From Sphyrna mokarran (taxonomy: Eukaryota), in assembly GCA_024679065.1 (NCBI GenBank), contig JAGIQG010000015.1, forward strand, positions 61,814,001-61,878,000: 64,000 nt of DNA, given 5' to 3'. Of the stretch, positions 3,200 through 64,000 are shown piece after piece (within the stretch, counting starts at the first letter, position 1; every line of letters begins with the position of its first letter). The position numbers and the translations under genes were made by a program. The notes under the pieces were generated by a model, which made no database searches, was not told where the DNA came from, and was given only the letters and a program-made list of their open reading frames with translations.

Positions 3200-4000
3200 C
3201 ACGATTCACAATACTTGAAAGTTTTCTCTGGCATGTATAGATTTTGAAACTGTAATCTACATGTGCAAGTCGAGGTAATTAATGTAGATTGGGAAAAGCA
3301 GTGGTCCTAACATTAACCTTTGAATTATTTTCATCATCAAATTACCTTTGAATCATCAAAAGAACATGTTCACCATCACTCTGTTTTCTGTCAATTGATC
3401 AACTTTATATTCGTCTAGCTCTAACCCTTTTATTCTATGGTCTTTAACTTTCCTTACTCTTCTGTTATGAAGCACTTCATGAAATGTATTTTATACATGT
3501 ACACCAACTGCACTATCCTCATTAACACTTTCTGTCATCTCATCAACACTTGCTAAGGTAGCTAAACAGGATTTGCCTTTAACAAATTCTTGTTGCCTTT
3601 CCTTAATTAATCTGCATTTATTCAAGCAACTATTAATATTGTTCTTCTTTATCATTTCTAAATATTGTCCACCACTGAGGTTGGTGGGTTTCTCCTTAAA
3701 TCCTTTTTTTACAAAATGGTATGACATTAGCAATTGTCCAGTCCTCTGGCAGCAAATCTGTATCTCAACATAATTTGAAGATTATGGCCAGTTCTTCTGC
3801 AATTTCTAACCTTGCTTTCACCTAACATCCTCTGATGCACCTGCTCTGGCCCTGTAACTTATCAACTTTAAGTAGAGGTATTCTTTCTAACACCTTCTTG
3901 CCATCAATGTTTATCTCATCCAATGCCTCAAATACATCCTCTTTCACAATGACTTGGAAAACAGCTTCTTCCTTTGTAGAGATGGATGCAAAGTATTTAT
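3200..4000 (-). mobile_element. Decayed CR1-group LINE ORF2 fragment
   Basis: ORF pieces LLNKYFASI and QQEFVKGKSCL correspond to CR1 LN-YF-SV and QHGF-KGKSCL. Confidence 0.75.
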
Positions 4001-4307
4001 TTAGTAATGACAACACTAACCAGCCAATAACACTTAATGCACATGTCATTGCCAGGACTTAATGCTGGATGCAAAGTATTTATTTAGTAATGACAACACT
4101 AACCAGCCAATAACACTTAATGCACATGTCATTGCCAGGACTTAATGCTGGATGCAAAGTATTTATTTAGTAATGACAACACTAACCAGCCAATAACACT
4201 TAATGCACATGTCATTGCCAGGACTTAATGCTGGATGCAAAGTATTTATTTAGTAATGACAACTCTAACCAGCCAATAACACTTAATGCACATGTCGTTG
4301 CCAGGAC
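3983..4307. repeat. 83-bp tandem repeat, about 3.9 near-identical copies
   Basis: Unit tggatgcaaagtatttatttagtaatgac...gccaggacttaatgc starts at 3983, 4066, 4149 and 4232. Confidence 0.97.
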
Positions 4308-11469: not shown

Positions 11470-11778
11470 AACCATAGAATCCTTACAGTGCAGAAGGAGG
11501 CCATTTGACCCAATGAGTTAAAACTGATAGCAAACTCACCCAGGCCCTATTTTCTTAACTCCATGTATTTATCCTATTGTTCTTTCTGACACTAAGAGGC
11601 AATTTAGCATGGCCAATCAACCTAAATCATGCAGTATGGAAAGAAACTAGAGCACCCAGAGGAAACACATGCAGACATGTAGAGAATGTGCAAACTCCAC
11701 ACAGACAATCATCCACAGCTGGAAATGAACCCAGATCTCTGAGCTGTGAGGCTGCAGTACTACCCACTGTGCCATGCA
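11470..11778 (-). mobile_element. HE1-like SINE (intron 1)
   Basis: catagaatccttacagtgcagaaggaggccatt tail and ccactgtgccatgc head. Confidence 0.8.
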
Positions 11779-16360: not shown

Positions 16361-16730
16361 CTAAATATTATAGACTGGTTAACTTTTGCTACACTAACAT
16401 AGATTTTGTTTGGATAAATTATATTCCGCTTGGTTCCGTTGCAAAGCTGAGTTACCACCAATTTCTATGGCAAAAATATGATGGCTTGATTTCAGCACAT
16501 TTAAGTCATTCTGACAGATCAGTGTGCCAGCCTGGGACAGACTCTGTGCTTCAGAATCCTATGTATAATCGGCTTTGTGTGCCTGTCTGAGTGAAATCAA
16601 TGTAAAGTGCCACTCGTGCTATGCAGTATCTACATCCTTTTTACCTTTGCGACCATGATTGAGGATCATGTTAGTAATTGACTTGTAACCTAAATGAGGC
16701 TTGATAATACTTTTTCATTCTTTTTGTTAG

Positions 16731-17143
16731 GTGGTGATGTTACAATGACAGACAAAGAAAACGTGTTGAGTCAAATCAAACACAACGTCTCCACCAACAT
16801 CCCCACTACCTGTAGACATCGTTCAAAGGTCTGTGCCCTTTCCTGGGGTAAGGACCACACAAACTTTCCTACTGACTATGATTTCATCCTGGGTTCAGAT
16901 ATCGTCTATACTTCCCTCACTTACCCCTTGCTGCTAAAGACTTTGCTACATCTGGCCAAAGATCCAACCATCATTTATCTCTCTTCAAAATTACGTGCAG
17001 GGAACCAGTCGGCTACTTTTCACGAGGAGCTTTTACCTCAGCACTTCAATTGTCAGCTAGTTCACAGAGTCGAGGATAAAAATATTAACGTGTACAAGAT
17101 TAGCAAATTGAGTCCAAGGAGAAAAGATGACCTGCTGATGTAG
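16731..17143 (+). CDS. EEF1AKMT3: EEF1AKMT3-like, coding exon 3 (post-I, DxxY motif, stop)
   Basis: Acceptor tttttgttAG at 16729-16730. Translates GDVTMTD...ALSWG...YDFILGSDIVY...LLPQHF...NINVY, ending TAG. The three exons sum to 699 nt, in frame. LLPQHF is typical of METTL21B. Confidence 0.95.
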
Positions 17144-20864: not shown

Positions 20865-21632
20865 GATATGGAAATGCTGCCATTGGACTGAGATATCAGT
20901 CTCTAAGATAGACAGAGTAGGTCATCTTAAAACACCAGGTTAAAGTCCAACAGGTTTATTTGGTAGCACGAGCTTTCAGAGCGCTGCCCCTTCATCGGGG
21001 AATGAAGAGTTGGGTTCACAAACAGGGCATATATAGACACAAACTCAATTACAAGTTAATGGTTGGAATGGGAGTCTTAATAGGTAATCAGGTCTTTACA
21101 AAAGCAGACTAAGTTAGTGGAAGAGGGTTAAGCACATGTTAAAGAGGTGTAAATTGTCTCCAGTCAGGACAGTTAGTAAGATTTTGCAAGCCCAGATAAG
21201 CCATGGGGGTTAAAGACAATGTGGCATGAACACAAGATCCTAGTTGAGGCCGTCCTCATGTGTGCGGAACTTGGCTAACAGTTTCTGCTCGGTGATTCTG
21301 CATTGTTATATGTCATGAAGGCTGTCTTGGAGAACGCTTACCCAAAGATCAGAGGCTGAATCCCCGTGACCACTAAAGTGTTCACCAACAGAAAGAGAGC
21401 AGCGTCCTTTCATCTGCTGTTGTAGCATCTGCATGGTCTCCTCAATGTACCATGCCTCGGGACATCCTTTCCTGCAATGTATCAGGTAGATGTTGCAAAC
21501 ATTGTCTTGTAAATTGAGTCTGCGCCTGTTTGTGAACTCAAGTCTTCACCCACCTAATGAAGAAGCAGTGCTCCAAAAGCTTGTGCTCCAAATAAACCCA
21601 TTGGAATTTAACTGTGTTGTGAGACTATTAAT
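20865..21632 (-). mobile_element. Decayed Penelope-like element with inverted end
   Basis: GIY-YIG C-terminal remnant (ccgtcctcatgtgtgcggaacttggcta), inverted pLTR piece at about 21525-21628, and flanking tgtacaaag at 20856-20864 and 21633-21641. Confidence 0.85.
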
Positions 21633-23658: not shown

Positions 23659-23769
23659 CAGTAAGTGGTCTCACAACATCAGATTAAAGTCCAGCAGGTT
23701 TATTTGGTAGCACAAGCTATCAAAGCTACTTATTGCGCCTCCCCTAGTCCAACCCTGGCAACTCCACAT
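23659..23769. mobile_element. 111-bp Penelope-terminus-derived mini-insertion
   Basis: cacaacatcagattaaagtccagcaggtttatttgg plus ctagtccaaccctggcaactccacat, flanked by tataaaaagtga at 23647-23658 and 23770-23781. Confidence 0.75.
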
Positions 23770-26480: not shown

Positions 26481-28089
26481 ATATGAGTGGCCAAACATCA
26501 AAGTATATATTATTTTTGCCTACCTTGTGATGTTTTCTTGCTTTTGCTTTCAGTCAGAGCCAATCTTTATTCTGCCATTAATATTTACCGCAGATCAATG
26601 CTTTGCTTCTTTATTACAACTATCACCATTCCCTTCACCTTTTGTCCCATGATGTCTTTGGTATTTAATCTCCCCTGCACTTGAACCTATTCCCGCTTTC
26701 AACAGTACTGAATCTTATCACATTTCTACCTTCCTTCACTTACAATTATTTAATTTGAAATGTTAATGATATTTTTCACTGCACAATGCTAGTAAACCTA
26801 TTGCACACATTCTGTTCTTCTTTCATATTTCCAGCACCTAGAGCTTTTCTTCAGAAGTATTTTAATGAGTGGAAACTGTTTGATCATGTCCCAAGGTTAT
26901 TATAGTTGATACATAACTCCAAGACTTCCTGTCTTTCTGAAAATATCCCAAGGCAGTTTGTAGGTTCACTAATAAACAAAATTTGACACCAAGCATTGTA
27001 AAAAGATATAAAGACAGATGATGAAAAGCTTGGACAAAGAGATAGGTTTTTAAGGACTGACTTAAACAAGAAAAACACAATAGACCAAATTTTCCCAGCC
27101 CTATGAAAATGGCTTTGAGACAGGAAGCAGAGAACTTCTGAAAGGGAAACTTCATGCAGACTTCTCGATGGTATTCTCACTTACGTTCCTTTTTTACTGG
27201 AGGCAGTGGAAAGCCAATTGAGATAGTTAGCTGTGCAGTTAGCTCCCACTTCACCTTAGTGAACATTTCTGAATGGTACCCAGGTCCCACAAAATGTCAA
27301 GAGTTTGACAGCTCAGAGGAGATAAAATCACAGAAGGGAGTCATCATTGTCTGTAGCTGACAGGCATTCAGGTCAACAAAACAGAAAACTGACAAGGGCA
27401 GGCAAAATAAATTAATAAATCATAATTTTCTCTTGCGGGAGAATCTATAAGTGGGGGGCACAATTTAAAAATAAGAGAGGTTTCTCATTTAAGATTAATG
27501 AGGATAAATTTATTCTCTGAGAGGATCATTAATCTTTGGAATTCTCTTCCCTAGAAAGCAGTGGCGATTGGATCACTGAATGTATTCAAGGCTAAGTTAG
27601 ATAGACTACAAGGGAGTCAAGGGTTATGAGAATGCAGACAAGAAAGTGGAATTAAGGCTGCTATCAGATCAATCACTTACTTCTGCTCCTATTTCTGAGG
27701 GTGGGAATCCTGCAGTGAGTAACTTGAATTCCTAAATTGATAAGACACAAGTCAGGATTGTAATAGAATACTCTCCATTTGCCTGGGTGAGAGCAGTTCC
27801 AACAACATTCTAGAAGATCAGCCCACTGCTTCGAGTCTGCAGACTGATCAATATTTAAGAACTCAGCGACCAGTAGGCCACTGCAGTAACTGACTTCATT
27901 TATAAGTGTGTAGAAGACAGTGTGTCAAAGAGACAAATCCATGTTTCCAATCAGAGGCGTTCAGGTCAGGCAACCCTGGCCTACACAAGAAATGATGTAA
28001 AGATGCCGGCGTTGGATTGGAGTGGTAAGAACTCAGTAAGAATTTAGCAACACCAATTATTAATCCAACCGATTTATTTGATAGTAAAA

Positions 28090-28127
28090 TAGCGAGCTTT
28101 CAACACTCCCGTGTCTTCATCAGGCAA
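28090..28127 (-). ncRNA. Minimal type I hammerhead ribozyme motif (sense pLTR)
   Basis: Minus strand reads ttgc CTGATGA a GACAC ggga GTGTT GAAA gc TC gcta. CTGATGA is at 28123-28117. Confidence 0.75.
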
Positions 28128-28340
28128 GTGCAGTGTTCTGGTCTGCAATAGCACACATCAGCACAGACAGTCAGAGATTGCTGATTAGAATGCGAATCCT
28201 TACATCTAACCTGCTATTCAAGTGTTAAAGTGGCTAACAATGTGTGTGAAGGGAATCCTGAGCATTGTTAGAGAATTGTGTATTTTCTCCAGACAGCACA
28301 GTAAGTGAGGTTTTTTGCTAACCCAGGCAAGTTACGGGGG

Positions 28341-29453
28341 TTACAGATAGTGTGTCATGAAGCCAAGATCCCTGTTAAGACCGTCCTCATGTGTGCGGAA
28401 CTTGGCTATCAGTCTCTGTTCAGCAACTCTGCGCTGTCGTGTATCACGAAAGCCCCCTTGAAGAACATTTACCCGCAGGTCAGAGGCCGAATGCCCATGA
28501 CTGCTGAAGTGTTCACCCACAGGAAGGGAACTGTTTTGCCTGGTGATTGTTGAGCGATGCTCATTCATCCGCTGTCGTAGTGTTTGCATGGTCTCCCCAA
28601 TATACCATGCTTCGGGACATCCTTTCTTGCAACGTATTAGGTAGACAACGTTGGCCGAGTTGCAAGAGTATGTACCGTGCATCTGGTGAATGGTATCCTC
28701 ACGTTTGATGATGTCGTCCATGTCTATGATCCGGCATGTCTTGCAGAGGTTGCTGTGGCAGGGTTGTGTGGTATTGTGGTCACTGTTCTCCTGAAGGTTG
28801 GGTAGTTTGCTGCGAACAATGATCTGTTTGAGGTTGTGCGGTTGTCTGAAAGCAAGAAGTGGGGGGGTGGGGATGGCCCTAGCGAGATGTTCATCGTCAT
28901 CAATGATATGTTGAAGACTCCGGAGAAGATGTCGTAGCTTCTCCGCTCCGGGGAAGTACTGGACAACAAAGGGTACTCTGTCCACCGTGTCCCGTGTTCG
29001 TCTTCTGAGGAGATCAGTGCGGTTTATCGTTGTGGCACGTTGGAACTGTCGATCGATGAGTCGAGCGCCATATCCTGTTCTCACGAGTGCATCCTTCAGT
29101 GTCTGGAGGTGTCTGTCACGATCCTCCTCATCTGAGCAAATTCTGTGTATACGGAGGGCTTGTCCATAGGGAATGGCTTCTTTAACGTGTCTAGGGTGGA
29201 AGCTGGAGAAGTGGAGCATTGTGAGGTTGTCTGTCGGTTTGCGGTACAGTGAGGTGCTGAGGTGACCGTCCTTGATGGAGATGCGTGTGTCCAAGAATGC
29301 AACTGATTCTGGAGAATAGTCCATGGTGAGTCTGATGGTGGGATGGAACTTGTTGATATCATCATACAGTTGTTTCAATGATTGTTCACCATGAGTCCAA
29401 AGGAAAAAGATGTCATCAATGTATCTAGTATATAACCTTGGTTGGAGATCTTG
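28341..29453 (-). CDS. Penelope ORF fragment: RT C-terminus, Cys linker and GIY-YIG endonuclease (5'-truncated)
   Basis: RYIDD, FLD, LYRKPT, CHSNLCKTC and VVYLIRC...WYIGET...R.NEH...EHF...H motifs in one uninterrupted frame. The ORF-track start lies in the inverted arm and is not a true start. Confidence 0.92.
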   Translation of the reverse strand, partial: QDLQPRLYTRYIDDIFFLWTHGEQSLKQLYDDINKFHPTIRLTMDYSPESVAFLDTRISIKDGHLSTSLYRKPTDNLTMLHFSSFHPRHVKEAIPYGQALRIHRICSDEEDRDRHLQTLKDALVRTGYGARLIDRQFQRATTINRTDLLRRRTRDTVDRVPFVVQYFPGAEKLRHLLRSLQHIIDDDEHLARAIPTPPLLAFRQPHNLKQIIVRSKLPNLQENSDHNTTQPCHSNLCKTCRIIDMDDIIKREDTIHQMHGTYSCNSANVVYLIRCKKGCPEAWYIGETMQTLRQRMNEHRSTITRQNSSLPVGEHFSSHGHSASDLRVNVLQGGFRDTRQRRVAEQRLIAKFRTHEDGLNRDLGFMTHYL

Positions 29454-29737
29454 TGATAGCCAAGTTCCGCACACATGAGGACGGTCTTAACAGGGATCTT
29501 GGCTTCATGACACACTATCTGTAACCCCCGTAACTTGCCTGGGTTAGCAAAAAACCTCACTTACTGTGCTGTCTGGAGAAAATACACAACTCTCTAACAA
29601 TGCTCAGGATCCCCTTCACACACATTGTTAGCCACTTTAACACTTGAATAGCAGGTTGGATGTAAGGATTCGCATTCTAATCAGCAATCTCTGACTGTCT
29701 GTGCTGATGTGTGCTATTGCAGACCAGAACACTGCAC

Positions 29738-29775
29738 TTGCCTGATGAAGACACGGGAGTGTTGAAAGCTCGCTA
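29738..29775 (+). ncRNA. Minimal type I hammerhead ribozyme motif (inverted pLTR)
   Basis: CTGATGA 29742-29748, stem II GACAC/GTGTT, GAAA 29764-29767, palindromic AGCT, and UH site TC at 29770-29771. Confidence 0.75.
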
Positions 29776-31147
29776 TTTTACTATCAAATAAATCGGTTGG
29801 ATTAATAATTGGTGTTGCTAAATTCTTACTGAGTTCCTACACAAGAAATCCAGACATGATCTATAGAAACGCATCAAAGATACCAAAAGACAGTATCAGA
29901 CCAAGCTGGAGTCCCAGGCTAGCCCAATGGACTCCCATCAACTATGGTAAGGTGTGCAAGACATAACAGGCTACAAGATAAAGGAATGTATAATTTTTTG
30001 CTCCAATGCGTCCTTCCCCAACAAGTTCAATGCATTCTATGCCAGTTTTAAGCAAGAGGTCAGTGATAGCACCCCTTCCACCCTGAAAACCTCAGCTGAA
30101 CCCATATGCAAGGCCACCATCATGAAAGTCTTCTTGAAAGACAGCCTTCTTGAAAGTCAATCCATGGAAAGCTACTGGTCCGGATGGAATACCCGGACTG
30201 GCACTCAGATCCTCTGTGCACCAGCTGGCTTGGGTATTCATAGACATCTTCAACCTCTCTTTACACCAATCTGACGTCCCTATCTGCTTCAAAAATACAA
30301 CCATCATCCCTGTATGAAAGAAAATCCAGACAGCGTGTCTTAATTATTATTGTCCGATGGCTCTGACATCCATCATTTTGAAGTGCTTAATGGCACAAAT
30401 CAATTCTGTCCTTCCAGATTGCCTGGGTCAACCGCAATTTGCCTATTGCCACAACAGGTCCACAGCAGACACCATCTCCTTGGATCTACACTCAACACTG
30501 GGATACCTGGCTAACAAAAACACCTCTGTCAGACTCCTATTTATTGACTACAGCTCAGCCTTCAACACCACTATCCCCACAAAACGCATCTCCAAACTCC
30601 ATGTCTTGGGACTCAGCTCCTCCCTCTGCAACTGGATCCTCAACTTCCTAATCCACAGACTGCAATCAGCAAGAATATACAACAACACTTCCTCCACAAT
30701 CATCCTTAATATTAGTACCCAGCTTTATCCTCAGTCCCTTACTATATACATTTATGATTGTGTGGTCAAATTCTCCTTCAACTCGATTTTTAAGTGCTGA
30801 TGATACCACTGTAGTGGGTCAGATCTCAAACAATGATAAGATGGAGTACAGGAAAGAGATAGAGAATCTGGTGAACTGGTGCAATTACAATAATCTCTCT
30901 CTTAATGTCAACAAAACAAAGAAGATAGCCATTGACTTCAGAAAGCATGGTGGAAGACTTGCTGTCTACATCAATGGGGATGAAATGGAAATGGTTGAGA
31001 GCTTCATGTTTCTAGGTGTCTGGATCACCAAAAATCTGTCCTGGTCCCTCCATGCTAACGTTATACATAAGAAAGCCCACAATGTCTCTACTTTCTCAGG
31101 AGGCTAAGGAAATTTGGCATGTCCCCTACGATTCTCACCAACATATA

Positions 31148-32719: not shown

Positions 32720-33345
32720 CAGTCAGAAGTGTCACAACACCAGGTTAAAATCCAGCAGGTTTAATTGGTTTCAGGAGATTTTGGAGCACTGCCCCTTCAT
32801 CAGGTGAGTGAAGAATTGAGTTCACAAACAGGGCATGTATAGACACAAACTCAATTGGAAGATAATGGTTGGAATGTGAATCTTAACAGGTAATCAAGTA
32901 TTTACTGGTACAGACAATGTGAGTGAAGAGAGGGATAAGCACAGGTTAAAGACATATGAATTGCCTCAAACCAGGACAGTTAGTGAGATTTTGCAAGGCT
33001 AGGCCAAATGGCGGGGCTCGCACATTGTGTGACATGAACCCAAGATCCTGGTTGAAGCAGTGCTCATGTGTGCAGAACTTGGCTATCAGCTTCTGCTCGG
33101 TGATTCTGCATTGTTGTGTCTTGAAGGCCACCTTGGAGGACTTATCTGAAGATCGGCGGCTAAATGCCCTTGTCTGCTGAAGTGTTCTCCAGCAGGAAGG
33201 GAACAGCCCTGCCTGGTGATTATTGAGCAGTGTCCATTCATCCATTGTCGTAGCATCTGCATGGTCTTGCCGAAGTACCATGCCTCGGGACATCCTTTCC
33301 TGCAGCGTATCAGGTAGACAATGTTGGCCGAGTGGCATGTGTATG
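32720..33345 (-). mobile_element. Decayed Penelope-like 3' fragment
   Basis: EQKLIAKFCTHEHCFNQDLGFM is homologous to the 28341 ORF end. pLTR carries ccttcatcaggtg (hammerhead CTGATGA on the minus strand; GAAA decayed). Confidence 0.85.
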
Positions 33346-33349
33346 TACC

Positions 33350-34030
33350 ATGTCAGTCAGTCAGACGACTCCCTCTCGGGACTTGTTGCTAGCCAACAGA
33401 TTTATGGGAAAGTCTGCTTCTATCCGTGTCACCTCTGCACCAGGTCAGGATCATGGGGCTGAAGTACATTCAAATATTGAGGAGAAGACCCTTCAAATAA
33501 CTACAAAGAGGCTGCAACTTTGAACAATCTAAATACAAATGGAATATGGATTCCCCTTGATTGCAGAAAAAACATATGAGCCACCTTAGTCTATAGTTGC
33601 ATGGACTGCTGCATTCCTTACCCTCCCAGCTAGATCTCTGGTGGAAAAATGAGGGATTGCCACTGGGGACTTTCCTGAGACAGATAGTAGAACAGAATGG
33701 CACAGTATGGCCTGACGGTGGAAGAAGGTAGGGAAATGGAGGGTGTACAGCAGCAGGCCATACAGGAAAACCCTCCGTGCTGCATGGAAAGGCATGAAGG
33801 AAATTTCCCCAAGATGCCTGAGAGGTTGAGGCTCCTGGGGGAGGTTCTTGCAACATCATCCATCCCATTTCTGTGCACTCCAGTATATCCCCAACTCTGG
33901 TCAGCTCATAGCCCAAGCACTCTTTTCCGTCAGCCCTCGGAATCGATTTTGATAGAGATGTGGATTCCTGTGCAACGGCTGTCTGTTGACAGCTTCTATT
34001 TAATGAGAGAGAACTCCAGCATGAGACAAC
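33350..34030 (-). mobile_element. Tx1/L1-clade LINE C-terminal remnant
   Basis: CFFCNQGESIFHLYLDCSKLQPL is a zf-RVT CCHC-type motif; FLYGLLLYTLHF lies upstream. Confidence 0.75.
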
Positions 34031-34049
34031 CATGTTCTAGACATTAATT

Positions 34050-34213
34050 GTCTTTTTTTGCAATGTAGGGCTTCTTCTATGATGCAAACTAACTGGTAAC
34101 TTAGAGGCCACTGCACTGTGCCTCTTTGGAATTCTTAAGAGCTACAATGCAGTGGCCTCCAAGTTACCAGTTAGTTTGCATCATAGAAGAAGCCCTACAG
34201 TGCAGAAAAAGAC
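34050..34213. repeat. Fold-back inverted repeat with ~70-bp arms
   Basis: tgtagggcttcttctatgatgcaaactaactggtaactt-gaggccactgca is mirrored by tgcagtggcctc-aagttaccagttagtttgcatcatagaagaagccctaca. Confidence 0.93.
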
Positions 34214-34522
34214 CATTTGGCCCATCGATTCTGCATCGACCATAATCCCACCCAGGCCCTACTCTCATATCCCTACACATTTACCAGTTAATCTCTCTAA
34301 TTTACACATCTCAGGTCACTAAGGGGCAATTTTATCATGGCCAATTAACCTAACCCACACATCTTTGGGCTGTGGGAGGAAACTGGAGCACCTGGAGGAA
34401 ATCCACACAGGCATGGGGAGAATGTGCAAACTTGATACAAACAGTGACCTAAGCCAGGAATCGAACGCAGGTGCCTGGAGCTGTAAAGCCACAGTTCTAA
34501 CCACTGTGCTACCGTGTCACCC
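34180..34522 (-). mobile_element. HE1-like SINE
   Basis: ccctacagtgcagaa tail and ctaaccactgtgctaccgtg head. Confidence 0.85.
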
Positions 34523-57460: not shown

Positions 57461-60039
57461 CCTGCCCTACCCCAAAATCCATCGCTGCTGAGCATGGGGG
57501 TCGGGGGGGTGGGGGGGAGGGCCATGGTGGGGGCGAGAGGGGGCATTGTGGGGTGGAAAGTAAGAGAGTGAAACCATCAGTAAGGTTATCCATCTGAGGC
57601 CCCTCAATCCCTCCCAGCAACCCATGTCCAATGACTATTGACATTGCCAACCAGGCGCTATTCCCTTGCCATTCTCCACCTCAATGGGTTGCTAACCACT
57701 GCCACATCATTGCCACAGTAATCACAGCCCATGCCTCCCCTTGCTTGCCAAGGCCTCCTGCACAGGTGTACCTTGTCTTCAAATGGTGTGGCATAATGCA
57801 TTCTGCACCCCAAGTGTAGTTGTGTAGCCGTTGGTGTGTGATGTGAGCCTGTCCCTCCAAATGACCAGTGCTATTCTACCCCCTTCCCCTACATTTGGAC
57901 CCCTAATACCACAGGCCATTGTTGGCAGCATGTGGCAGACTGGACTCCATGCACTGGTGCTCACATAGAGCATAAGGGTGGCTATGAGGAAGTGCCCATT
58001 GGGAACCCTTGAAGCATTAACTTGCTGGCACCCTTGTGACTGTCAGGAGATGGAATCATATCAAAGAGAACACAGCAGAGTCGATGCAATATGAAGGGTC
58101 ATGTTAATACTTGCAGAGCTCCCTTGATTGGGGTGACAGCTGCCAGACCTGTAGCTTGTTAGCGTTAGTGGGCGTAGCCTGGGATGGAATGTCAGCAGTA
58201 GGCCACAGAGCCTGCTCAAAAGACAGATGGCAGGGTAACCATAGTGACATTAGCAGCGATGGAACTTGACCTGGTATGGAACCCCTCAGGATTCATTCAG
58301 TGACCAAGGGGAATGGATGGTCCAGACCATCAGCGACTCCCCAATCTATGAAATCCCAGTCAAGTCTGTGCCTGACCAATCCCCCACACCTATGCAAGTC
58401 CCCACCCCATCCCGCACCATGGCAACAGCTGGCCCCACCAACTCCATCCCCTACCCTGCACTCTGGAAGTTGGTGTTCAGTGGTACACACCTCTGAGCTC
58501 TCCTCCACTGCCACATTTTTAAAGGCCAGTACTAATTGACAGCGGTGTAACGTCACGTGGAAAGATGGGAAGCCTCCGGAAATGCAAACAATTGTGGGCC
58601 GAGCTCACTCATGTTATTAAAATCCAGTCAATCCCATATTAATAAGTCTTGAGCCTATTCTGATCATGAAACCGGTTGTTCTATTCAAAAGGGACCAGGA
58701 GGATCATAAACCATTGGCATTGGGCAGGAATCCGATTCGTAGCTATCTTCCCAGCTAGCTGCTAGGCACGGTGAGGCGGTAAAATTCCACCTCATAATTC
58801 AGTGAGGGAGCTTCAACATGGTTTTGTGAAAGAGAAATTGTTTTTGTCAAATTTGTTGGAGTTTTTTTGACGGTATAACAAGCAGTAAAGACATACCTGT
58901 AGCTGTAGTGTAATTGGATTTTCAAAAGGCATTCGATAAGGTGCCATATAAACATTTGTTACATAAGATAATTGCTTGTGGAGCGGGGTAATAACTTTAG
59001 CATGTAAAATGAATTGGCTAACAAGAAATGAAGAGTCAGGATAAATGGGTCAATTTCAGTTTGGCAAACTTTAACTAGTGTTTTGATGTTGTTGCCAAAA
59101 CCTTAGTGAAGTCCTACTGTTACCATATCTTCTTGTCTTACCATCCTTTGATGAGGTTTTGCTTCTTCTATAACAAACCTGAGATAGTCAGTTTAGTTTA
59201 ACGTGAGAACTATTTATAAAGACCTTAGGGTGATTACATGGGATTAAGAACACAGAGGGCTTGATTTTACCATCAAGTTGCACCTGTTTTGAGGTGCGAA
59301 AACTTGGTAAAAGTCAGGCGTGAGGTGAGTAGTGCAATCCATGCCTGCCTCTGTGCCAGTTCCCCCTTTACCGAGGTCTAAAAATGAACACGATCAGGAA
59401 TGCACTCAAAACGGGCGCGACAGCCATTTAAATGTACTTGCATGGATTTAAATTGATTAAATGAGCTGCACACCCATCTTTACTAGCAATTCCCCCTTTA
59501 ATACCATATTCACTAATCCGGATCGGCACAAAACAGATATGCTCCATAACAGTCTGATTCGGGTGTTCCATCAGTGAGGGTTTGTGAAGAGGTAAGTGGT
59601 AAGTGTCTGATGGCTCTCGCTGTTCATGGGTGTCCTTGCATTACAGCCATTTTCTTTCTCGTGTCAGTGACGGCTCTGTGAGTGTGTGCGAAGCTGTTAT
59701 TCAGCAGGGTCTCCGATGTCCGACTTGCAGCACGGACCTGGGTCTCAGCAGTGATCCCAGGTCTTGTAGTGCTGTTAGTTGCTACTGCACTCAGCTCAAT
59801 TCCAGCTGAAGGATGTGTGCAAAGTCCTTGCAAATTGCACAGCTGCAGCTTCTCAACTTTGCAAGGAACTGTGATTTTAGGGAGCATGTGGCTGGGGGAA
59901 TTGGAGGGAGCTATGATTTTGGGATGCTTGTGGCTGAGGAATTTGGGGGATATGGATAGTGACTGTTGATGGGCTAGGTGCAAGCAACATTCCTTAACCT
60001 CATCATGTGTTCCTCTCCATCTCCCCCCACCTCCTTAAG

Positions 60040-61316
60040 GTGATGAGATGGTTTTTGCGATGCAAGCGATCAATCTTCCTGTTCTTTTGGCTGCTGCTGA
60101 AGACGGAAGAGCTAGACAAAGAATTGTGAACACAGGAGGCCCAGACCTGACCACTTGCACAAATAAAGGGAGATGATTACCAGAGGCAGGAGGTGGCTGC
60201 CATTCACTCTGAGAGGGGGCGCAGTAGAAGGCGGGAGCAGAGACCCCAACAATTCCATGTACGAGTTTCATTTGAACAGATGTCAAATACTGCGTGCCAC
60301 CGACGTCTCTGTCTCCAAAAGGAGACAGTGGAACACCTGTACAAACTATTGCAAGACCAGGCGCCTAGGGAGTGGGGGGAGGCACCCACTCTCAGTGGCT
60401 GTCAAATTAACAGTCGCTCTGAACTTTTATGTGACTTGGCTCCTTCCAGATCCTCAGCTGAGATGTATGTGGCATTTCCCAGTCAGCTATGCACACACAT
60501 GTCAAGCAGATCACAGAAGCCCTGTACGCCCAGACTGGGCAGTACATCAAATTTAACCTAGACCAGGTCCATTAGGAAGTCAGGACTGCTGGGTTCGCGG
60601 CTATTGTGGCGATGCATAAAGGACAGGAGCCATCAATTTAATCTATGTCACCCTCAGGGCCCCCCTACAGACTCCATGAAGATTCATGAACAAAAAGGGG
60701 TTTCACTCCCTGAATGTTCAACTAGTGTGTGACCATAATACGACCATCATGCACATCTGCACAAGATGCGCAGGATGTACGCCAGCTTCATTGTCAGGAG
60801 TGCTGATATTTGAGGAATTTGAGGAAGAGCCCAGGCTGCAGGGCTGTCTTGTGCATGATATGGGTTACCCTCTTCAGACATCGCTGAAGGAGCCTGTGAG
60901 GAAGGCTGTGACTCAGGTGGAGACCCATATAATGAGGCCCACGTAGCCACCCACACAATAGTGGAGTGGTGCATTGGACTCCTCAAAGTGCGATTCCTGT
61001 GCCTAGACTGCTCTGGCGGGGCCCTCCAATACAGCCCAGTGATCTCTTTCTGCGTTGTGATTGTGTGCTGCGCTTTGCGCAATCTGACTCTGCAGAGAGG
61101 TGACCTGTTGGAGGAAGAGGAGGAAGATGTGGAGGCTGACCAGCTGGGCGCCACTGGGTAAGATGACCAGCAGGATGAGAAAGAAAAGGAGGAGAGGAGG
61201 AGGAAGAGAAAGAACATGCCCTGGAACTCCAATCAAACCCTGGAGGGCTGATAACTCGAATGAGGCACACGAGGGCAGCTAGGGAGGCCTTGATCACCAG
61301 GTGGTTCAGTCGCTAA
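60040..61316 (+). pseudogene. Harbinger transposase (HARBI1-like), frameshifted
   Basis: LSVAVKLTVALNFY, NKKGFHSLNVQLVCDH, DMGYPL, VEWCIGLLKVRFLCLD and CCALRN motifs. Confidence 0.9.
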
Positions 61317-61774
61317 GGGCTTGTGTCTTTGGGTTTCAAACACACACTCCCCACCTAAAATTTCTTTTATCGCCTGCAACATTGTCACACCTGGATATAC
61401 TGTGTTAGTGAGTTCTTTGGCAGACAGGAGGATGATGACATCATGCTAAGCACCATTTTGATGATTCCCTAGTACAAACTAATCTGACTCCATCTGAGCT
61501 CCACATGCACGCTGGCACTTGGGCCCACATCTTTGTAGTGAGTAAGGATCTGAAATGCCCATACAGGCCCTGGGATGGGTGCATATCCCCCAAATCCCTC
61601 AGAACATGTAAAACACAACTACAGTCTCCTGGCTTGTACACCTGGAATGGTTCAAGCCCTTCCTTCTTCCTTGGGGTTCCTGTGGGTTCCTGGTTTACTG
61701 CATGGGATAGAGATGCTTCTGCAGTGAGCTCCAGAATCCTGGCATCACGTGGCCCTGTCAGCCCAGGAGGACAA

Positions 61775-62100
61775 AGAACAAAGAATGAAACAGCATGGAA
61801 ACAGGCCCTTCAGCCCAACGAGCCTGCACCGCCATCTCCATGTTCCCACTTCCACCCGTGATCCCTGTCATCCCTGTCTATGTTTATAGATCTATGCATT
61901 ACAACAAAATTTGAGACAATTTAGGGAGAACTTGTTCTGCCAATCAGCCTAAGAGCACATCTTTGGAATGTGGGAGGAAACCGGAGCACCTGGAGAAAAC
62001 CCATGCAAGCACAGGGAGAATGCGCAAATTCCCACAGACACAGATCCAAATCCATGTATCTGCACAGCACAGTGATAGTCACTGAACTGTCATGTTGCCC
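61775..62100 (-). mobile_element. HE1-like SINE inside Harbinger 2
   Basis: tgtgggaggaaaccggagcacctggagaaaaccca core. Confidence 0.75.
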
Positions 62101-62174
62101 ATCAACTGGTCCAGGTCAAGCGTACACTAATGACGTGAAGCACTAGGATATTCTCGAAAAATCCAAGAGCATTT

Positions 62175-62380
62175 CTTTTCAGTCCACTTACTCCCTCTTC
62201 CAAGTCATTTATGTATATTACAAATAGAAGAGGTCCCAGTACCGAGCCCTGTGGCACACCATTAGAGACCAACCTCCAGCTAGAAAAACACCTTTCCACT
62301 ATTACTCTCTGTCTCCTATTACCAAGCCAATTACTTATCCATCTAGCTACCTGTCCTTGTATCCCATTAGCCTTGACCAC
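62175..62380 (-). mobile_element. CR1 RT internal fragment
   Basis: [13 protein letters not shown]...[20 protein letters not shown]. Confidence 0.9.
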
Positions 62381-62583
62381 CTACATCCTACCAATGTGGT
62401 CGAGCCCTCTGAGATGGCCGCCTGAGTCAGGAGCCACCTGTCAATGGCCACAGTAAGTGCCCTCTGAGATTGGACCATGCACGGCAGCCCCTCAGCCATG
62501 ACCGTCTGCGACTGAGCTGTGTTCTCATAGGCTGCAGCCATAGCTCACTATGTCTCAGCACTGTCCCACTGGGTCTCCTGCAG

Positions 62584-62824
62584 ACTGTAGAGATACCGGC
62601 GTTGGACTGGGGTAAACACAGTAAGAAGTCTGACAGCACCAGGTTTAAGTCCAACCGATTTATTTGATAGTAAACTCACACAGGCTTTCGAGATTCTCCT
62701 CTTCGTCAGGTGAATGAGGTGTTCTGGTCTCAGACCTGATGGAGAGGAGAACCTCGAAAGCTTGTGAGTTTATTATCAAATAATTCGGTTGGTTTTAAAC
62801 CTGATGTTGTCAGACTTCTTACTG
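62584..62824. mobile_element. Fold-back Penelope-derived mini-element with hammerhead cores on both strands
   Basis: Arms 62619-62711 and 62734-62824. Flanking actgggtctcctgcag at 62568-62583 and 62821-62836. Confidence 0.85.
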
Positions 62825-63202
62825 GGTCTCCTGCAGGCTCTCAAGCCTCTCAGCCATCAGCTGCAGAATAGCTCAGCGGTAGCCCAATGTGACTTGGCCG
62901 TGGCCCTCTGGGACTCAGCCTGTGGTCTGCGGTGACTCAGTCATCGCTTGGAGCCTGCCACACAGGGTGAGGATCCCCGGCCCTACCCTTGCAGTGTTGG
63001 CCCAGGAACCATACGACACAGGCAACAGGTGGCCCACTTGGGACTCCCTCCAGAAACCTCAGAGTTGACCCAATGTGGCTGTCAGTTCCTCCAGCAATCC
63101 CAGGTTCTGCTGCTGCAACTCCAGCAGCTGAGAGAGAAGTGATCTCAAAAGCCCAGCATGTAGCCTGGGCCAGCTGAGTCCTCACCTCTGGCAGGTCCCA
63201 TG

Positions 63203-63338
63203 TAAGAAGTCTGACAACACCAAATTTAAATCCAACCGATTTATTTGATAGTAAATTTTGGATTTAAATTGGATTTAAACCTGGTGTTGTCAGACTTCTT
63301 ACTGTGTTTACCCCAGTCCAACGCCGGCATCTCCACAT
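63203..63338. mobile_element. Fold-back Penelope-derived mini-element without a hammerhead
   Basis: taagaagtctgacaacacca...tggtgttgtcagacttcttac plus tail ccagtccaacgccggcatctccacat, flanked by caggtccc(c)atg. Confidence 0.8.
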
Positions 63339-63709
63339 CAGGTCCCCATGTGCCAGAGGCCTTGGACATTCCTTCCTCCACCAAATGTACATTATCAGAT
63401 GTGTCGTGCTCACCAGTGAGTGACCCAGTAGCCTCACCACTAACTGGACCCACCAACATCTCAGTATCTGGTGGAAGCTGATGCCGAAATGGTTCCCCTC
63501 AGAAGCCCTTTCACCCATATCCTCCGAGGATTTGTCCGAGCTGTTCTGAACAGGTTTGGCAGGAGCTGCATCAGAGGCCTGTAGTGTGAGCCACGATGCC
63601 AGAAGATCCTGGGGCTTCCAGTTCTGTCCCTGCAACACAGGACACAAGGTTAAATGCAAGAGAGAGAGAAGAATCAGGATACAAAACACCTGATTTACTT
63701 TTCTCTATT

Positions 63710-64000
63710 GAACATAGAACAAAGCGCAAAGAAAATTACGTCACAGGAACCGGCCCTTCGGTCCTCCAAGCCTGTAGCCACCAGGCTGTCCATCCGGTTT
63801 GTAACCCCTACTCTTCCTGGACCATATGCCTCTATTCGCATCTCTTTTAAGTAGCTATAGACACATCTTAAAAATCATTATCATATCTGCCTCCATGACT
63901 TCTCCCACACGGCTTGCAGATATCCACTACCCTCTCTGTGTAAAGAAACATGCCTCATTTTCTTTAAACCTTGTCCCTGATACTCGAAACTCATGCCCCT
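63710..64000 (-). mobile_element. CR1 LINE 3' end
   Basis: gaacatagaaca tail, ggcccttcgg and ccactaccctct-tgtaaaga motifs. Confidence 0.7.

Follow-up and report, generated by a model that had tools for sequence, protein, structure and literature searches.

With high confidence, we read the hairpin-shaped insert described here (237 bp, against 240 bp in the initial annotation) as two 3´ ends of a Penelope-like element (PLE) joined head to head, one of them tailed and the other tail-less. They likely arrived in a single target-primed insertion and likely represent a dead, decayed copy. The insert, which contains no ORF and no coding sequence, probably exemplifies an already known pattern rather than a new self-copying RNA. 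It lies in a 64,000-nucleotide stretch of the Sphyrna mokarran genome (contig JAGIQG010000015.1), and this whole stretch is referred to as the window.

Layout and fold of the insert

The insert and its flanks consist of the following parts:

62568..62583, plus strand: left copy of the target-site duplication (TSD), 16 bp, identical to 62821-62836
62584..62585: two-base junction separating the TSD from the aligned family end; the family alignment begins at 62586 and loose contig ends accumulate before that position
62586..62618, minus strand: PLE 3´ "tail" of about 32 nt, present at one end only; the copies at 27994 and 63200 align with it at their tailed ends, and tail-less arms lack it
62619..62711, minus strand: left arm, by alignment the 3´ part of the PLE pseudo-LTR (pLTR), sense on the minus strand
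62712..62735, minus strand: "spacer", an unpaired continuation of the left arm with parental pLTR sequence, by collinearity with the 27994 PLE and by contig alignments
62734..62735: inversion junction with 2-nt microhomology (AC) common to both arms; the left arm reaches 62735, the right arm starts from 62734
62734..62824, plus strand: right arm, by alignment an inverted, 5´-truncated, tail-less PLE 3´ end; its final 4 nt overlap the TSD
62821..62836, plus strand: right copy of the TSD, identical to 62568-62583

The inverted arms of about 90 bp, the 22-nt spacer and the 16-bp TSD reported in the initial annotation were all recovered. The arms (62619-62711 and 62734-62824) measure 93 and 91 nt and align over 91 columns with 10 substitutions and one 2-nt gap; the loop between them (62712-62733) is 22 nt long. 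The TSD, ACTGGGTCTCCTGCAG, is repeated over 16 bp without mismatch. Because its first four bases (62821-62824) pair with 62619-62622 and thus double as the tail-less end of the element, its length can be read as 12-16 bp. No allele with an empty site was found among the 15 contig joints listed (of 304). The insert is asymmetric, with 62586-62617 having no partner on the right side. The predicted fold of the plus strand reaches -144.1 kcal/mol (z -18) and that of the minus strand -130.8 kcal/mol (z -16); in both cases none of 200 shuffles was as good.

Paralogous flank contigs (62380-63040) place the insert within a host element that is moderately repeated. Frames near 60151-60560 on the plus strand, which by eye we take to be Harbinger-transposase-like, gave no Pfam match. 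A separate fold-back with arms of about 86 bp (89.5%) and almost no loop lies at 34046-34217 and adjoins a dispersed SINE-like repeat at 34195; BLAST within the window found no PLE similarity in it. The window further holds about four nearly identical (99%) 83-bp units in tandem at 3983-4307, and a 149-aa frame at 16694-17143 (plus strand) that matches Pfam Methyltransf_16 (E 1.2e-14) and is likely an exon or a retrocopy of a lysine methyltransferase gene.

Origin of the sequence

The initial annotation likened the termini of the insert to the Penelope at 27994. BLAST within the window agrees, with 74% over 152 nt. Collinearity of the left piece with the 27994 PLE at its tailed end starts at the first base, spans the arm and continues into the "spacer", up to 62730. 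Contigs of related copies align as far as 62735 and then run into other sequence (11 in contig run X2, 65 in X4). The "spacer" is therefore the stretch of the left piece that lies beyond the reach of the right piece. The left piece comprises the tail and about 117 nt of pLTR, ending at 62735; the right piece has no tail and comprises 91 nt of that pLTR in inverted orientation. The junction coincides with a short parental palindrome, GTCT-C-AGAC. A loss of 17 nt from the right arm by slippage, following perfect fold-back at GGTCT-C-AGACC, was considered and rejected, since contigs show that the parent reaches 62735.

The longer relative at 27994 is 5´-truncated and young-looking, with its 381-aa frame still open. 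Its product carries a C-terminal GIY-YIG domain (Pfam PF01541), a pair of cysteines lying in the GIY-YIG motif and a Cx4CxxC linker. This relative shows the combination of a CX2-5CxxC linker and, following it, a GIY-YIG domain with CCHH at the C-terminus. The Cx4CxxC linker marks Neptune and Nematis (PMC8557442), and judging from this neighbouring relative, the parent of the insert was likely a Neptune-clade PLE. By the 74% at its terminus, the insert would be assigned to a different subfamily from the 27994 PLE.

Other PLE ends in the window

BLAST within the window yields six loci with PLE ends, the insert included; a weak 21-nt match at 11525 (E 0.014) was left out. Arm reach is counted in nt from the tail end and given as tailed/tail-less.

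The insert itself: arm reach about 155/130 nt, 16-bp flanking direct repeat
63200..63339: sister insertion of the same subfamily, fold-back of about 140 bp, arm reach 74/94 nt, repeat of 8 bp or more
23659-23769: PLE fold-back, arm reach about 40/109 nt, 12-bp repeat
20865-21632: PLE fragment, arm reach 651 nt and about 139 nt or more, 9-bp repeat
27994..29835, minus strand: longer relative PLE with tailed end, 381-aa RT-EN fragment and 387-bp inverted arm, arm reach about 1460/417 nt, 14-bp TSD
32720-33352: sixth PLE-end locus, single arm, partner not found

A tailed arm combined with an inverted, tail-less one is found at five of the six loci, and these five fold-back copies have five different junctions. 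The focal junction is absent from all five other loci. The sharing of junctions had been proposed as a check, and within the window its outcome (junctions differing in 5/5 fold-back copies) points to independent truncation events.

The sister insertion lies 380 bp downstream of the insert and matches it at 94% over 69 nt; its tail is on the right, it holds no hammerhead and its junction is unlike the focal one. It is flanked by an exact 8-bp repeat, extended by 3 bp after a 1-nt gap, and has an 11-nt tandem duplication at its junction. The copy at 23659-23769 is an older fold-back of about 110 bp, the tailed arm of which is barely more than the tail. In both of these copies the tail-less arm extends further 5´ than the tailed arm, without the tail, and each arm has sequence missing from the other. 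The PLE fragments at 20865-21632 and 32720-33352 are older and belong to another subfamily; a tail and an inverted arm are seen in the first.

Decay of the arms

Fold-back arms can begin near-identical, as shown at 27994, where 387 bp of arm share 99% identity. The arms of the insert differ by 11% while its TSD is exact; the chance of an exact TSD at that rate is 0.16, which is not significant. At seven of the ten arm mismatches, one arm has the family letter and the other a rare letter, with three departures on the left arm and four on the right (family letters were taken from the 40 variant rows listed, of 342). Two of the remaining three mismatches fall at family-variable sites and one is absent from the rows listed. 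All this fits neutral decay after one insertion.

Three other accounts of the mismatches were rejected. An origin of the arms from two subfamilies is unneeded, given that seven of ten mismatches are one-sided departures from a single family state. Selection for the rod found no support, as G-U-compatible mismatches number six on plus and two on minus (p=0.29). A-to-I editing of the hairpin RNA before re-insertion is not compelling: three of the seven resolved changes are A-to-G on plus (62636, 62683 and 62742), and the other four are G-to-A, C-to-T and two A-to-T.

Hammerhead motifs

Two minimal type I hammerheads are found in the insert:

62672..62716, minus strand: core 62709-62703, extra A at 62702, helix II 62701-62690, GAAA 62689-62686
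62736..62770, plus strand: core 62736-62742, helix II 62744-62755, GAAAGCTT 62756-62763

The cores in both polarities and the single defect assigned to each by the initial annotation are where they were described: A9 is changed to G at 62742 on the plus strand and U16.1 to C at 62683 on the minus strand. Both hammerheads carry a second lesion as well. On the plus strand the junction removes the 5´ strand of helix I, leaving 2 bp; on the minus strand 2 nt are inserted after the cleavage site, before the 3´ strand of helix I. The in-register helix I thus has 2 bp (plus) and 3 bp (minus), and an intact CUGANGA and GAAA..UH core was not found on either strand of the insert.

Comparison with contigs indicates that the core lesions are specific to this locus (for 62683, in X1 and X2). 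At 62742, X1 has 17278 depth units out of 17366 with the family letter A, X2 396 out of 399, X4 10435 out of 10616 and X10 111 out of 111; the family state differs from the A9 defect in each of the four runs. The share of the family letter at 62683 is 93% in X1, 93% in X2, 55% in X4 and 5% in X10; the U16.1 defect is not the family state in X1 or X2.

On both strands of the whole insert, the predicted pair probability of helix II is 0.0000, and a fold forced to have helix II and an open core is less favorable by 34.5 and 32.9 kcal/mol. The ribozymes of the insert are likely passengers, predicted by the folding model to be trapped in a long hairpin. Rfam gave no match at gathering score in the window and, in 62400-63500, 21 weak matches to miRNA or snoRNA models with no hammerhead family among them; as minimal hammerheads have no helix III, this blank is weak evidence.

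The presence of cores in both polarities is a consequence of the inversion, and the 27994 copy likewise has one core per strand, both intact. The hammerhead lies about 100-125 nt from the end of the element, so that any inversion with both arms that long has a core on each strand. A warning follows for annotation in general: "hammerheads in both polarities on a rod" arise automatically from PLE inversions.

Contig evidence

At 80% likeness, 45,671 contigs of X1, 6,390 of X2, 43,360 of X4 and 1,739 of X10 fall on 62380-63040; they are short-read contigs and fragment in repeats. Loose ends accumulate before 62586 (1,859 contigs in X1, 199 in X2, 1,287 in X4 and 105 in X10) with a flank agreement of about 0.4. 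Because these flanks are so varied, the tail end is common to very many loci. A further class of loose ends lies before 62617-62618. Among the 15 joints listed (of 304), 14 are inside the element, all at different positions; 13 of them are supported by 1-3 contigs per run, the other by 6 in X1 and 3 in X2. The joints 62635-62797, 62662-62795, 62680-62755 and 62700-62754 recur in two runs.

No piece spanning 62735 is present among the 32 listed (of 98,439), and three of those listed stop at 62735. Where contigs of X2 and X10 show variant letters at 62740 and 62742, these are at most 7 and 9 letters, respectively, from the contig end, which fits a common start at 62733 without bridging; in X4 the distances are at most 8 and 13 letters. 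The corresponding distances in X1 are 39 (62740) and 51 (62742). At least one X1 contig with the family letter at 62742 extends 51 letters both ways and could be a bridging copy. X1 depth, which does not equal copy number, falls from an average of 738,257 in the bin to the left of the junction to 14,232 (less than 2%) at 62740. A high-copy family sharing the junction is unlikely. None of the 8 pieces listed for X10, a run only guessed to be RNA, is identical to the focal locus, which has no bearing on expression. Metagenome pattern scans for PLE-end motifs yielded 0 loci.

Alternative explanations

The initial annotation left two readings side by side, and they fared differently. A 5´-truncated and inverted Penelope product gained from the tail, from the spacer being parental sequence, from the five different junctions in the window and from the many contig joints of low support. 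A rod-like ribozyme RNA, resembling retrozymes or viroids, with ribozymes in both polarities and replication through a circle, lost ground and now appears very improbable. It has in its favor the very stable rod and the cores on both strands, and PLE pLTRs gave rise to animal retrozymes, which are present in a chondrichthyan too (bioRxiv 10.64898/2026.07.22.740005). Retrozymes, however, are tandem same-strand repeats, and two hammerheads are needed to release the unit-length RNA on which they depend (bioRxiv 10.64898/2026.07.22.740005; PMC7229834). The insert has one core per strand, and no tandem repeat occurs in 60000-64000, so no unit-length RNA could be released. In PMC4209133, monomers of the minimal hammerhead did not cleave and dimers showed low cleavage. 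A hammerhead that requires a dimer, present once per strand and locked in a hairpin, could not cut out a circle. As for the rod, it is linear and consists of an inverted duplication that has a tail on one side. The lesions of both cores, the energy cost of opening them and the lack of a hammerhead among Rfam matches, including the 21 weak ones, count against the ribozyme RNA too. An origin as a MITE of the DNA-transposon type, or as a miRNA-like hairpin under selection, is hardly credible. The long, terminal-looking inverted arms and the matches to generic miRNA models would suit it, but the arms are PLE pLTR sequence, the ends are asymmetric due to the tail, the TSD is 12-16 bp long and varies among copies (8-16 bp), and all miRNA matches are far below gathering scores. 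PLE homology largely refutes this explanation.

There is a small chance of a small non-autonomous family, in which a fold-back PLE stub would be transcribed by read-through and then, through its tailed 3´ end, be mobilized again by PLE protein acting in trans, leaving several loci with the same junction. PLE proteins can work in trans on pLTR-bearing RNA (PMC3846280) and non-autonomous PLE derivatives exist (PMC8557442). A few contig joints recur across runs, though these may represent orthologous loci, and the X1 contig reaching 51 letters to either side of 62742 would be expected of a bridging copy. Against such a family stand the absence of the junction from the other five loci in the window, the position of 62740 and 62742 near the ends of X2, X10 and X4 contigs, and the X1 depth at 62740. 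A 100-bp duplex, moreover, is a poor template for reverse transcriptase. A search by title and abstract, mostly of openly accessible papers, listed no precedent for a fold-back PLE family sharing a junction. That this particular stub is founder or member of a small, trans-mobilized, junction-sharing family, MITE-shaped and with ribozyme cores on both strands, is improbable. If true, it would make a possible step from PLE debris to ambisense rod-like ribozyme RNAs.

Possible mechanism of formation

A single insertion of two PLE 3´ ends could proceed as follows. The GIY-YIG endonuclease would nick both strands, 12-16 bp apart. Reverse transcription would start from each nick, at the start site of the tail end in one case and about 32 nt further in in the other. 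Both cDNAs would end early, after about 150 and 90 nt, and their 3´ ends would anneal over AC/GT and be filled in (twin priming). The arms would be identical at the start and mutate separately afterwards.

Two routes to PLE inversions come into question. Self-priming from junction palindromes is favored for inverted junctions in PMC3846280, and the short parental palindrome at the focal junction would suit it. Nicking of two strands with two starts of reverse transcription is documented in vitro in PMC11167929: both target strands are nicked and extended by a Poseidon PLE protein, two start sites of reverse transcription bound the tail, and insertion does not need the hammerhead. We lean moderately towards twin priming, ahead of copy-back and of a central deletion at a later time. 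The focal junction would come out the same by copy-back from the first cDNA. The mini-copies at 63200 and 23659, each arm of which has private sequence, favor two independent priming events; copy-back alone is insufficient for them, unless their centre was deleted later. Later central deletion of longer palindromes could also produce differing junctions. A title-and-abstract search, mostly of openly accessible papers, listed no precedent for twin priming in PLEs. Thousands of such stubs in the host would allow scoring of junction depth, microhomology and tail asymmetry.

Comparison with known systems

Non-LTR retrozymes, as presented in PMC7229834 and bioRxiv 10.64898/2026.07.22.740005, resemble the insert in being non-coding, PLE-derived and of similar size, with a type I hammerhead. 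The insert differs from them in that its units are inverted, not direct, its hammerheads are minimal, not canonical, and it would have no means of excising a monomer; tandem units with two or more same-strand hammerheads were not found in it.

The minimal type I hammerheads of metazoan PLE pLTRs (PMC4209133) share with the insert the extra nucleotide after position 9, the G10.1-C11.1 pair, the short helix I, the palindromic 15.2-16.2 (GC), the lack of helix III and the dual motifs on opposite strands. In that paper, such opposite-strand dual motifs, 100-700 bp apart, are regarded as probable truncated PLEs. The cores of the insert are 26 nt apart in comparison with these roughly 100-700 bp, its helix II has 4 bp in comparison with 7-8 in Schistosoma, and both cores are mutated.

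The 27994 relative is like the Neptune clade as described in PMC8557442 in its GIY-YIG domain, Cx4CxxC linker and two cysteines, whereas the insert has no coding sequence.

The best counterpart of the insert is provided by the complex insertions of EN+ PLEs, the published layout of which is an inverted 5´-truncated copy with a one-sided tail of 30-40 bp (PMC8557442; PMC3846280); such insertions are also described in PMC8969392. The insert agrees with the described cases in its head-to-head 3´ ends of PLE pLTR origin, the inverted copy with strong 5´ truncation, the one-sided tail, the TSD and the short palindrome at the inverted junction. Junctions that differ between insertions are seen in all five fold-back copies in the window, with partial support from contigs. 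The insert departs from the published examples in its size, as at 237 bp in total its arms are too short for an ORF or a direct pLTR. Taken alone, the locus is a tidy fossil of this described insertion pattern.
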